A DNA stretch of 52,090 nucleotides from Patescibacteria group bacterium (GCA_041645215.1 JBAZQK010000001.1:1-52090); one strand, 5' to 3'; counted from the first letter of the stretch, positions 16,376-51,567 are shown. Numbers and translations: made by a program. Notes: generated from the sequence alone by a model not told the origin.

Positions 16376-16389
16376 TTGGAGCGGGTAAC
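16376..16389 (-). repeat. 14-bp direct repeat of the tRNA-Gly 3' end
   Basis: TTGGAGCGGGTAAC identical at 16376-16389 and 16669-16682. Confidence 0.85.
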
Positions 16390-16400
16390 CCGCCCAAATT

Positions 16401-16655
16401 TCAAACCAGTAAAGTTTTTTCTAATCGCTTTTTAATAAAATTTCGCCCCCAGCCCGTTTTTAAAAATCTTTCCCTGTTTTGAGCATCTTCTTTAGCTAAA
16501 CACGCCTCATAATAAATCAGCCTAAATGGTCGACTGTTTTGTGTAGAAAAAACTTTACCGGTCTGATGTTTTACAAACCTTTTTCTTAGGTTATTAGTAA
16601 AACCAGTATATAACTCACCATCTTGCAGACTTTTTAAAATATAAACGTAAAACAT
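16401..16655 (-). CDS. Small GIY-YIG nuclease (UPF0213-like)
   Basis: FYVYIL.S......YTGFT.NL.KR...H...T....PF.LIYYE......A..RE.FLK. Confidence 0.92.
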   Translation of the reverse strand: MFYVYILKSLQDGELYTGFTNNLRKRFVKHQTGKVFSTQNSRPFRLIYYEACLAKEDAQNRERFLKTGWGRNFIKKRLEKTLLV

Positions 16656-16669
16656 CTTGGTTTGAAACT

Positions 16670-16744
16670 TGGAGCGGGTAACGAGAGTCGAACTCGTATC
16701 TCGTCCTTGGCAAGGACGCATAATAGCCGCTATACTATACCCGC
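16670..16744 (-). tRNA. tRNA-Gly(GCC)
   Basis: GCGGGTA/TACCCGC, U73, CGTCC-TT-GCC-AA-GGACG, encoded CCA. Confidence 0.96.
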
Positions 16745-39197: not shown

Positions 39198-39233
39198 TGG
39201 ACCGAGTGGGAGTTGAGCCCACGACCTCCGCAA
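39198..39233 (-). pseudogene. Orphan 3' half of an Ala-type tRNA
   Basis: TTGCGG-AGGTC-GTGGG-CTCAACT-CCCAC-TCGGTCC-A; degenerate T-loop. Confidence 0.65.
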
Positions 39234-39292
39234 CCCGCCCTGTTAGACATTTTTGGACCTAGGGAGAATCGAACTCCCGTCTCCACAACTTG

Positions 39293-39401
39293 CCCCGTTA
39301 GAAATTCGCTTTTGGACTCACCGGGAATCGAACCCGGAACTCGGCAATGCGAATGCCGCGTAATACCGTTTTACTATGAGCCCACATCATTTCTAACGGG
39401 G
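39293..39401. mobile_element. MITE-like element with 12-bp TIRs carrying a tRNA
   Basis: CCCCGTTAGAAA (39293-39304) / TTTCTAACGGGG (39390-39401). Confidence 0.8.
39313..39383 (-). tRNA. tRNA-Ala(CGC)
   Basis: GGGCTCA/TGAGTCC with G3.U70, CGGCA-TT-CGC-AT-TGCCG, CCGGG-TTCGATT-CCCGG; CCA not encoded. Confidence 0.93.
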
Positions 39402-39472
39402 TGAACGAATGTGGTGTCATACCACTAGACCATAGGCCCTAAATAAACATTATAGCTGATTATAAGCCTCTT

Positions 39473-39544
39473 TGCCCCTGGCACGAATTGAACGTGCATT
39501 TATCCCTTAGGAGAGGATTGTTCTATCCATTGAACTACAGGGGC
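39473..39544 (-). tRNA. tRNA-Arg(CCU)
   Basis: GCCCCTG/CAGGGGC, ATCCT-CT-CCT-AA-GGGAT; CCA not encoded. Confidence 0.93.
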
Positions 39545-39592
39545 ATAATCGCTAGTTGATGTAAAAATCGTCTTATTTCATTAACCTTGAAC

Positions 39593-41103: not shown

Positions 41104-41310
41104 CAAATTTGTTCGTAAGCGATTATGCCCTGTAGTTTCCGCCCACCTGCCCGCCATCGGCCTCTGGCAATCGATAATTATTATTTAGTGCTGTAGCTTT
41201 CTATTTAATAGCATCGTTTACCCCGTTAGAAGTAACCCCAATGGCTGTCGGGATACTCCACCACCAGTGGAGACTTCTAACGGGGTTTACTTTGTACAGG
41301 CTTAGGCAGG
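41104..41310 (+). repeat. Dispersed ~138-bp repeat, copy 1 (contains a MITE insertion)
   Basis: Near-identical to 46158-46295 apart from a 65-bp insert plus 4-bp duplication. Confidence 0.92.
41221..41285. mobile_element. MITE with CCCCGTTAGAAG/CTTCTAACGGGG TIRs and TTTA target duplication
   Basis: Filled site here; empty site at ~46271. Confidence 0.88.
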
Positions 41311-41349
41311 CCCCGCTTAGCGGGGCGGGCGGGCGGTGGCGCTTTATTA

Positions 41350-51466: not shown

Positions 51467-51567
51467 CCCCGTCAGAAGCTCACACGGGGCATTAAACCCC
51501 GTGTTCGCTGTTGAGAATTGGGCATTCATCCCCGCCGAATCGGCGGGGCATCCTGCTTCTAACGGGG
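51467..51567. mobile_element. MITE (CCCCGTCAGAAG/CTTCTAACGGGG) between convergent tyrS and ruvC
   Basis: 12-bp TIRs with 1 mismatch; internal CCCCGCCGAATCGGCGGGG hairpin. Confidence 0.8.

Follow-up and report, generated by a model that had tools for sequence, protein, structure and literature searches.

A complete tRNA-Ala(CGC) gene inside the anticodon loop of another tRNA-Ala(CGC) gene in a Patescibacteria genome: a probable homing-type replacement cassette

Results

A tRNA-Ala(CGC) gene is split by a cassette that carries a second tRNA-Ala(CGC) gene

We analyzed a DNA stretch of 52,090 nucleotides from a Patescibacteria group bacterium (GCA_041645215.1 JBAZQK010000001.1:1-52090), which is hereafter called the window. 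Within it, a tRNA-Ala(CGC) gene is interrupted in its anticodon loop by a 109-bp cassette, and the cassette contains another, intact tRNA-Ala(CGC) gene (Table 1). The genome (G000) is a metagenome-type assembly of 1.17 Mb in 26 contigs. As shown in Table 1, both genes lie on the minus strand. The 5′ half of the outer gene provides the acceptor strand GGGCCTA, the D arm, the anticodon-stem strand CCACA and the loop bases T32, T33, C34 and G35, and the 3′ half provides T38, the stem strand TGTGG, the variable loop AGAC, the T arm GGGAG/CTCCC, the acceptor strand TAGGTCC and the discriminator base A. When the halves are read together, the acceptor stem GGGCCTA/TAGGTCC, which includes G3:U70, and the anticodon stem CCACA/TGTGG are formed. 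The G3:U70 pair is the identity pair of alanine tRNA. ARAGORN in intron mode reported one cloverleaf over c[39254,39439] with an insert of 115 nt; we rejected its label 'Leu-CAA' for the outer tRNA as an artefact of the forced splice.

The cassette is bounded by perfect 12-bp inverted arms, CCCCGTTAGAAA/TTTCTAACGGGG, at 39293-39304 and 39390-39401. Between the arms there are only a 7-nt leader, the cargo tRNA gene and an 8-nt trailer. The inner gene, which ARAGORN places at 39312-39384 on the minus strand, also possesses G3:U70, and the 5′ halves of the inner and outer tRNAs differ at 11 of 30 positions. The 4-mer TTCA at the left junction is not repeated on the other side of the cassette, so that there is no target duplication. 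No reading frame, no other coding capacity and no integrase were found in the 109 bp. In the tRNA inventory, the inner gene is the sole gene for tRNA-Ala(CGC) among the 47 tRNAs of the genome, and tRNA-Ala(UGC) is also present. When the 196-nt stretch was folded as RNA, the computed structure was a nested cloverleaf with −74 kcal/mol (z = −5.1). The original prediction, made from the sequence of the window, had described an outer cloverleaf that is broken after TTCG and a 109-bp insert with perfect 12-bp terminal inverted repeats that holds a sequence-distinct tRNA with the same anticodon. This nested arrangement is confirmed to the base by direct reading, ARAGORN and Rfam.

Table 1 Features of the nested tRNA-Ala(CGC) locus and related elements in the window
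Feature	Position	Strand	Basis or remark
Third-layer tRNA-Ala, 3′ half (CGGG T TGCGG AGGTC GTGGGCTCAACTCCCAC TCGGTCCA)	39198..39237	-	Direct reading; junction comparison
Decayed arm of earlier cassette of the same family (CCCTGTTAGA)	39238..39247		Direct reading; one mismatch
Outer tRNA-Ala(CGC), 3′ half (T TGTGG AGAC GGGAGTTCGATTCTCCC TAGGTCCA)	39254..39288	-	Direct reading
Junction 4-mer CAAG (CTTG on + strand), right flank of cassette	39289..39292	-	18/40 cargo loci
Cassette, 109 bp	39293..39401	-	Ends common to ~47 elements of the genome and at least 119 loci elsewhere
Inner (cargo) tRNA-Ala(CGC), intact, G3:U70	39313..39383	-	Rfam 63.4 bits
Junction 4-mer TTCA (TGAA on + strand), left flank of cassette	39402..39405	-	18/40 cargo loci
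Outer (resident) tRNA-Ala(CGC), 5′ half (GGGCCTATGGTCTAGTGGTATGACACCACATTCG)	39406..39439	-	Direct reading; ARAGORN intron mode
tRNA-Arg(CCT), upstream neighbor	39472..39545	-	ARAGORN; Rfam 67 bits
Ordinary tRNA-less copy, 63-bp subfamily	41221..41285		4-bp duplication TTTA
Ordinary tRNA-less copy, 99-bp subfamily	51467..51567		Left arm with one mismatch; flanks CGAA / G+CGAA

Cassettes in other genomes interrupt the same kind of tRNA gene as they carry

A search of 185,579 species genomes for CCCGTTAGAA-N45-75-GTTCRA-N20-50-TTCTAACGGG gave at least 119 loci, and a whole tRNA lies between the ends in 40 of them. Because the scan needed a T-loop-like GTTCRA and exact ends, the isotype counts are biased and represent lower bounds. 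With this restriction, the cargos belong to eight amino-acid types: Ala-CGC (11 loci), Pro with UGG or CGG (11 loci), Val (7 loci), Leu-CAG (3 loci), Thr-UGU (3 loci), Gly-CCC (2 loci), Met (2 loci) and Ile (1 locus). The hosts are Nomura-, Uhr-, Niyogi-, Gribaldo-, Giovannoni-, Staskawicz-, Jorgensen-, Kaiser- and Lipton-bacteria, Kazan and 'Saccharibacteria'.

The original prediction proposed a screen for tRNAs between such ends and asked whether the flanking halves share the isotype of the cargo. They do. We compared each outer tRNA remnant, hereafter called the shell, with the cargo tRNAs of all other loci (41 loci, namely the 40 loci and the window). In 33 of the 41 loci, the best-matching cargo has the same isotype as the shell's own cargo. 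When the isotype labels were shuffled, the mean was 8.3 and the maximum was 17, and none of 5000 shuffles reached 33. The remaining eight shells, read by eye, are decayed halves of the same isotype or lie at contig ends. Wherever the outer halves are recognizable, the cargo has the same orientation as the shell. Among the loci examined, we saw no cargo copy outside tRNA genes.

The isoacceptors with C34 (Ala-CGC, Pro-CGG, Val-CAC, Leu-CAG and Gly-CCC) account for 25 of the 41 cargos, a count that the search pattern may bias. The codons of a C34 isoacceptor could be covered by a U34 partner. Dispensable tRNAs may be the easiest landing sites. At three loci with Thr cargos, the shells share a 3-nt loss in the 3′ strand of the anticodon stem. 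This loss and the constant junction hint at a carry-over of flanking sequence together with the element (co-conversion), although two of these hosts are related and one of the shells has a decayed T arm.

The outer gene resembles the resident gene of relatives and the inner gene resembles distant cargos

The gene order tRNA-Arg(CCT) > tRNA-Ala(CGC) > protein gene > tRNA-Ala(GGC) is conserved in three relatives (G001, G005 and G011), and we used this order to locate the same locus. Uninterrupted alleles were found in relatives. Two genomes of the same family, G011 and G012, carry a tRNA-Ala(CGC) with the continuous loop TTCGCAT; tRNA-Arg(CCT) lies upstream of it in G011 and tRNA-Ala(GGC) downstream of it in G012. 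In G001, which belongs to the same genus as G000, the tRNA-Ala(CGC) that matches the shell in the window is intact and there is no copy of the end motif. The outer tRNA in the window is identical to the uninterrupted resident of G012 at 30 of 34 positions in the 3′ half and at 22 of 30 positions in the 5′ half. The inner tRNA is 92-94% identical to the cargos of L132 (Gribaldobacteria), L140 and L076, and 72-75% identical to the residents of related genomes. Therefore, the shell is the former resident gene and the cargo has been imported. G195 shows the opposite arrangement: its cargo is of the type that is outer in the window (CCACA/TGTGG, variable loop AGAC) and its shell is of the inner type. 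In different genomes, each of these two tRNA-Ala alleles overwrites the other.

The intact tRNA-Ala(CGC) of G001 has an architecture of its own. At L162 (G001:C2, 1990-2330, minus strand), a 20-bp inverted repeat of another sequence (CCTCGCATTAAATTTTCACC / GGTGAAAATTTTAGTGCGAGG) surrounds it, and this unit is embedded in what is left of a further tRNA-Ala, the T loop of which contains an additional insert.

Older layers are present at the locus in the window. On the 3′ side of the outer tRNA, there are a short trailer, the decayed arm CCCTGTTAGA and then the 3′ half of a third tRNA-Ala, the 5′ half of which has been lost. The junction of this third layer is of the CGGG-T-stem type, as in L084 and L088, and the region gives only weak Rfam signals resembling transfer-messenger RNA and tRNA. 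Because a decayed arm and a third tRNA-Ala 3′ half are found at 39198-39247, the present shell must itself have been carried by an earlier cassette, and the locus has undergone at least two rounds of overwriting.

tRNA-carrying cassettes have constant flanks and no target duplication

The junctions were assigned by visual comparison with the inner tRNAs. The ordinary, tRNA-less copies of the family have the layout [NNNN][Y-CCCGTTAGAA...TTCTAACGGG-R][NNNN], in which the identical 4-mer on both sides is a target-site duplication. In other genomes, this 4-bp duplication is present in 68 of 92 tRNA-less copies, whereas it is present in none of the 40 tRNA-carrying copies. Instead of a duplication, the tRNA-carrying copies have constant asymmetric flanks: TTCA was counted on one side at 18 loci, and CAAG or CGAG on the other side at 22 loci. 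Copies with Pro-UGG and some other cargos have the reverse complement, CTTG...TGAA. Because there is no duplication and the flanks are constant, it is unlikely that the tRNA-carrying cassettes were brought by the usual transposition of the family. In most cases, the break separates anticodon position 35 from position 36 or has removed a few bases, and the flanking 4-mers often overlap the loop bases by 2-4 nt. No direct-repeat attachment-site core was found at the junctions.

Flanks of the TTCA...CAAG type occur also with other element ends, namely CCCCGTCAATAAAAA, CCCCGTATAAAC, CCCCTTTATTTA and CCCCGCCACATTT. The motif TTCACCCC-N85-115-GGGGCAAG was found 12 times in 401 genomes of the phylum (2 times in the control), and 7 of the 12 occurrences hold a tRNA. 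Apart from the tRNA genes, L297, L298, L301 and L294 (in G349, G217 and G076) combine CCCGTTAGAA ends and TTCA...CAAG flanks with AT-rich non-tRNA interiors at non-tRNA sites, and two of them have the motifs GTATGAAT and TATGCTNATTATCC in common.

The insert lacks the features of an intron

The original prediction also considered that the insert could be excised like an intron, giving two tRNAs from one locus. The sequence between the two strands of the anticodon stem is TTCG|TTCA-cassette-CAAG|T. From this arrangement, no single excision gives a 7-nt loop with the anticodon CGC; the loops that could result would show CAA, CGA or CGT within a tRNA body of alanine identity. Such products, charged with alanine by alanyl-tRNA synthetase, would be harmful. 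We examined both possible registers by hand and found no bulge-helix-bulge motif at either junction. The tRNA-splicing endonuclease (PF01974) is absent from the genome, and the same search finds it in four archaea used as a control. In the Rfam search, nothing but tRNAs was detected and no group I or group II intron family appeared even at E = 10. Therefore, both an archaeal-type intron (no motif, no PF01974) and a group I or II intron or other known RNA were rejected. There is a weak Y-RNA-like Rfam match (20 bits against a gathering score of 80), which comes from the stem-plus-tRNA shape only, and the Ro/TROVE protein is absent from the genome; on these grounds a bacterial Y RNA was rejected as well. 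Trans-splicing of split tRNAs as in Nanoarchaeum was rejected because this is a bacterial genome and because, in other genomes, the halves undergo decay. In those genomes, the shells are mostly truncated or invaded by hairpins, and only approximately 13 of the 41 shells still give a cloverleaf. The decayed shells look as expected of pseudogenes, and the insert is, on all these grounds, probably not an intron.

The cassette ends belong to a family of short elements in this genome

The 10-mer end motif occurs 51 + 51 times in the genome (2 + 0 times for the reversed control), and it is weakly enriched in the window, where 7 matches were found against 2.6 expected. The motifs pair into approximately 47 elements of 40-283 bp, the interiors of which are highly variable. 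In a comparison among relatives, 95 end motifs were counted in this genome, 0 in G001 and 0-4 in the others; this patchy distribution points to a recent burst of the family. One 282-bp member (C5:62621-62902) contains a reading frame for a GIY-YIG nuclease (Pfam 47 bits) with one in-frame TGA. Several ordinary copies lie at the tip of longer inverted repeats.

The original prediction had noted tRNA-less copies with the same terminal inverted repeats at 41221 and 51467 in the window. Both were found, the latter with the mismatch given in Table 1. The copy at 41221-41285 lies inside a larger repeat that is present three times (also at C14:5172 and C14:8632). Around this copy, in the region 41130-41345, GC-rich and roughly complementary stretches (cgcccacctgcccgcc ... 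ggcgggcgggcggtggcg) are observed on both sides, and an Rfam search of this region identified no known RNA. In addition, at least six CCCGTTAGAA elements, several of them nested or in tandem, are gathered at G000:C22:700-6610 on a 10-kb contig; flanks of the form agaaattctNaaac recur there, and a 283-bp copy without an open GIY-YIG frame is included.

Two models of the insertion of the ordinary copies were abandoned. A sticky-end model, in which the same flank is kept at every move, does not agree with the duplications TTCA, TTTA, CGAA and TGAA of the members of one subfamily. A 6-bp GTNNAC duplication was replaced by the 4-bp duplication with Y...R element ends on the basis of the 92 copies in other genomes.

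Small GIY-YIG genes and half-tRNAs gather at the tRNA loci of the genome

Besides UvrC, the genome contains 18 small GIY-YIG reading frames, and 9 of these have a tRNA gene at a distance of at most 400 nt (binomial 2e-8). Furthermore, for 19 of the 47 tRNA genes, a half-copy of the respective gene is present within 450 nt. Two further nested tRNAs were observed. At G000:C19:11540-11720 (minus strand), an intact tRNA-Ala(UGC) lies between CCCCGCCACATTT/AAATGTGGCGGGG within the 5′ half and the 3′ end of an older tRNA-Ala(UGC). At G000:C20:78609-78714, tRNA-Arg(UCU) is nested between CCCCTTTATTTA/TAAATAAAGGGG in the D loop of an older tRNA-Arg, and the flanks are CTTG...TGAA. The tRNA loci of this genome are general targets of invasion. 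The shell at the C19 locus has an ordinary CCCGTTAGAA element inserted precisely at its GTCCAC 3′ end, and a GC-rich palindrome is present in the upstream shell of tRNA-Arg at the C20 locus.

The window contains one more tRNA locus with an insertion. In the region 16380-16744 (minus strand), tRNA-Gly(GCC) (16744-16670) is followed at a distance of 15 nt by the start of a small, intact GIY-YIG gene (16655-16455). A second copy of the last 12 bases of this tRNA, TTACCCGCTCCA, is found near 16385, beyond the GIY-YIG gene, and the inverted repeat AGTTTCAAACC/GGTTTGAAATT frames the gene at 16455-16655. This region appears to be a nuclease cassette at a tRNA 3′ end, and its design is unlike that of the nested cassette.

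Discussion

A cassette that probably replaces the tRNA gene it interrupts

We propose, with a probability of about 70%, that the 109-bp insert is a minimal non-autonomous cassette of the homing type, which replaces the tRNA gene that it destroys by the putative mechanism described below. The outer gene would then be a dead, silent shell, and the cargo would be expressed as the only working copy. The suggestion in the original prediction that a selfish element pays for its target with a replacement tRNA agrees with the isotype match in other genomes and with the empty alleles in relatives, and no evidence was found for its alternative that the hairpin is a scaffold for tRNA gene conversion. Its designation of the insert as a miniature inverted-repeat transposable element (MITE) is in part appropriate. 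The inverted ends, the approximately 47 copies and the longer copy with an enzyme frame fit a MITE; the lack of target duplication (0/40) and the fixed junction TTCA...CAAG do not.

In the proposed mechanism, a small GIY-YIG nuclease would break the resident tRNA gene in the DNA coding for the anticodon loop. A copy of the same tRNA gene that bears the cassette would then be the template for repair, and the conserved tRNA halves would serve as homology, as in homing. The cassette would be tolerated in an essential or useful gene since the replacement is brought along. Thus, the nuclease would mobilize the cassette in trans. We infer the identity of the nuclease, the cut site and the repair route, and the link between nuclease and cassette is associative. 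Nevertheless, because small GIY-YIG frames cluster at tRNA genes and because there is a precedent in SegB of phage T4 (see below), a GIY-YIG driver is plausible.

Several points weigh against this proposal. The cassette encodes no enzyme, and a nuclease gene is found neither within it nor next to it; the GIY-YIG frame of the 282-bp copy in this genome is itself broken by the in-frame stop. A constant TTCA...CAAG junction across isotypes is not predicted by simple homing, and the homology arms, approximately 35 nt, are short for recombination. The cargo has the anticodon loop of its target and is thus not clearly protected from the cut that destroys the target. Such a lack of protection fits the layers at the locus but would leave the drive with no obvious advantage. 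Nor does the proposal account for a change of cargo isotype. At L054, L058 and L079, cargo and shell are nearly identical, which could reflect local duplication or later gene conversion instead of import. Finally, the cargo pattern has 0 matches in viral contigs, which yields no candidate for a vehicle between species. The junction pattern has 120 matches in viral contigs, all without a tRNA and at chance level; a phage vehicle was therefore rejected.

Alternative explanations

The most serious alternative is that elements of this family transpose, like MITEs, into any DNA that forms a hairpin loop, and that only harmless events survive because insertions into other tRNA genes are lethal. The cassette shares its ends with the approximately 47 ordinary elements that have 4-bp duplications, several of these elements lie at the tips of longer inverted repeats, and tRNAs are single-copy in small genomes, all of which would be expected from such a process. 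However, the tRNA-carrying copies lack the duplication that most ordinary copies possess, and none was seen at non-tRNA sites, although insertion there would be neutral. The identity of the cargos is also important. Loss of tRNA-Ala(CGC) should be tolerable because tRNA-Ala(UGC), which can read GCG by standard wobble, is present in the genome. The majority of the cargos (25/41) are C34 isoacceptors, whose loss should be tolerable when a U34 partner exists, and therefore the lethality of mismatched insertions alone cannot explain or enforce the match between cargo and target. This match favors homology-dependent or site-specific targeting. We consider that transposition followed by survivorship is unlikely. 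A local origin, in which a palindromic insert gave rise to duplication, template switching or gene conversion around it and the inner gene is a repaired copy of the resident, is more improbable still. It would account for the near identity of inner and outer tRNAs at L054, L058, L079 and L124 and for the half-copies near 19 of the 47 tRNAs of the genome. In the window, however, the two 5′ halves differ at more than a third of the compared positions, the inner gene resembles the cargos of distant lineages while the outer gene resembles the resident of the family, the same two alleles exchange their roles in G195, and the end motif is absent from the genome of the same genus.

Two explanations deserve even less weight. 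In the one, the element acts at the RNA level: the stem formed by the inverted ends would be a processing or splicing signal that yields two tRNAs, or the product would be a Y-RNA-like molecule made of a stem and a tRNA. The position in the anticodon loop, where tRNA introns lie, the stable nested cloverleaf that is predicted for the transcript and the Y-RNA-like Rfam match would agree with this explanation. It is nonetheless highly improbable, given that no single excision restores CGC, that bulge-helix-bulge motif, PF01974, Ro/TROVE protein and intron families were all absent, and that the outer halves are decayed in most other genomes. The other explanation, misassembly, had been named in the original prediction as a possible refutation: two strain variants of tRNA-Ala(CGC) might have been merged in an assembly that is metagenomic and consists of 26 contigs. 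The same architecture with conserved junctions recurs in 40 independent assemblies from many projects, and inverted ends together with junction 4-mers are unlike the product of a strain chimera. The chance that the locus is such an artefact is close to negligible.

Relationship to known systems

The nearest published idea is tRNA-dependent lysogeny, in which an actinobacteriophage integrates into one of the host's tRNA genes, does not rebuild that gene and provides a same-isotype tRNA (Guerrero-Bustamante and Hatfull 2024, PMC10865867). Similarly, the cassette supplies a same-isotype tRNA for the disrupted gene. However, in tRNA-dependent lysogeny a whole temperate phage is inserted by a tyrosine integrase at an attP/attB core of approximately 10 bp, whereas here a 109-bp cassette with inverted ends, which carries a tRNA only, lies in the anticodon loop, in layers and without an integrase.

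For the nuclease, SegB of phage T4 can be compared. SegB is reported to be a free-standing GIY-YIG homing endonuclease of a tRNA gene cluster; it recognizes a conserved motif of tRNA genes, cuts with a 2-nt 3′ overhang and drives the inheritance of itself and the neighboring tRNA genes (PMC2330249). In the present genome, small GIY-YIG genes likewise cluster at tRNA genes, and the family member with a GIY-YIG frame has the ends of the cassette. SegB is active in phage crosses, moves along with the segment that it spreads, and leaves no broken tRNA shell behind. In contrast, the cassette lacks a nuclease gene, is bounded by inverted repeats and is surrounded by a split resident tRNA.

Other comparisons concern the element and its site. 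Bacterial MITEs and palindromic elements (Correia/NEMIS, RUP, Nezha and the Rickettsia palindromic elements) are short, non-coding and multi-copy, possess terminal inverted repeats and have longer gene-bearing relatives. The ordinary members of the family described here show a 4-bp target duplication as MITEs do. The tRNA-carrying cassette differs in that it has a predicted working tRNA as cargo, no duplication and a fixed asymmetric junction, and is found only inside genes for the same tRNA. Integrative elements target the 3′ ends of tRNA genes, duplicate only the 3′ segment and use an integrase. In both cases, tRNA genes are conserved landing sites and a sequence borne by the element preserves function; here, however, the element brings a complete, divergent tRNA, and the former gene is given up. 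Introns also interrupt tRNA genes in the anticodon loop, as in bacterial group I introns (bioRxiv 10.1101/2020.01.27.920355) and archaeal bulge-helix-bulge introns or split tRNAs (PMC4090602). Unlike these, the cassette has no ribozyme core, bulge-helix-bulge, splicing enzyme or splice that restores the anticodon, and the interrupted gene decays. Thus, the insert is not an ordinary MITE because there is no duplication, apparently not an intron because there is neither a restoring splice nor the machinery, and not an integrase element because there is no integrase.

In full-text literature searches, we found no published description of nested replacement tRNAs. A meeting report (PMC10714607) covers archaeal split tRNAs and the rRNA introns of the Candidate Phyla Radiation only, and does not describe nested replacement tRNAs. 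We place the cassette with the mobile elements that compensate for a disrupted tRNA gene, and there is a fair chance that it forms a distinct class of the cleave-and-rescue type.

Implications for the tRNA genes of Patescibacteria

A wider hypothesis, for which the odds are in our view somewhat worse than even, is that these elements constitute a form of cleave-and-rescue selfish DNA. According to it, tRNA-only cassettes of approximately 105-140 bp, moved in trans by GIY-YIG-type nucleases of approximately 80-130 residues, would insert by homing at the anticodon loop of the gene for the tRNA that they carry and would destroy and replace this gene. Rival alleles would spread between distant lineages by layered overwriting, tRNA sequences would be shaped as much by the competition of cassettes as by vertical descent, and the TTCA...CAAG flanks would mark a distinct joining chemistry.

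If this is true, the cassette would be among the smallest self-sufficient "deals" between selfish DNA and its host, in which approximately 110 bases occupy a gene of translation by carrying a substitute for it, and it would offer a natural model of cleave-and-rescue inheritance. tRNA callers and tools for integration sites and phylogeny would need care with nested and half genes. The design of the cassette (stem, short leader, tRNA, short trailer) could serve as a compact means of tRNA-gene delivery in laboratory strains. For the organisms themselves, the hypothesis would explain the half-tRNAs that litter the tRNA loci of ultra-small bacteria and would give a testable role to the many tiny GIY-YIG proteins of such genomes. 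Moreover, tRNA genes could move horizontally between classes of Patescibacteria.

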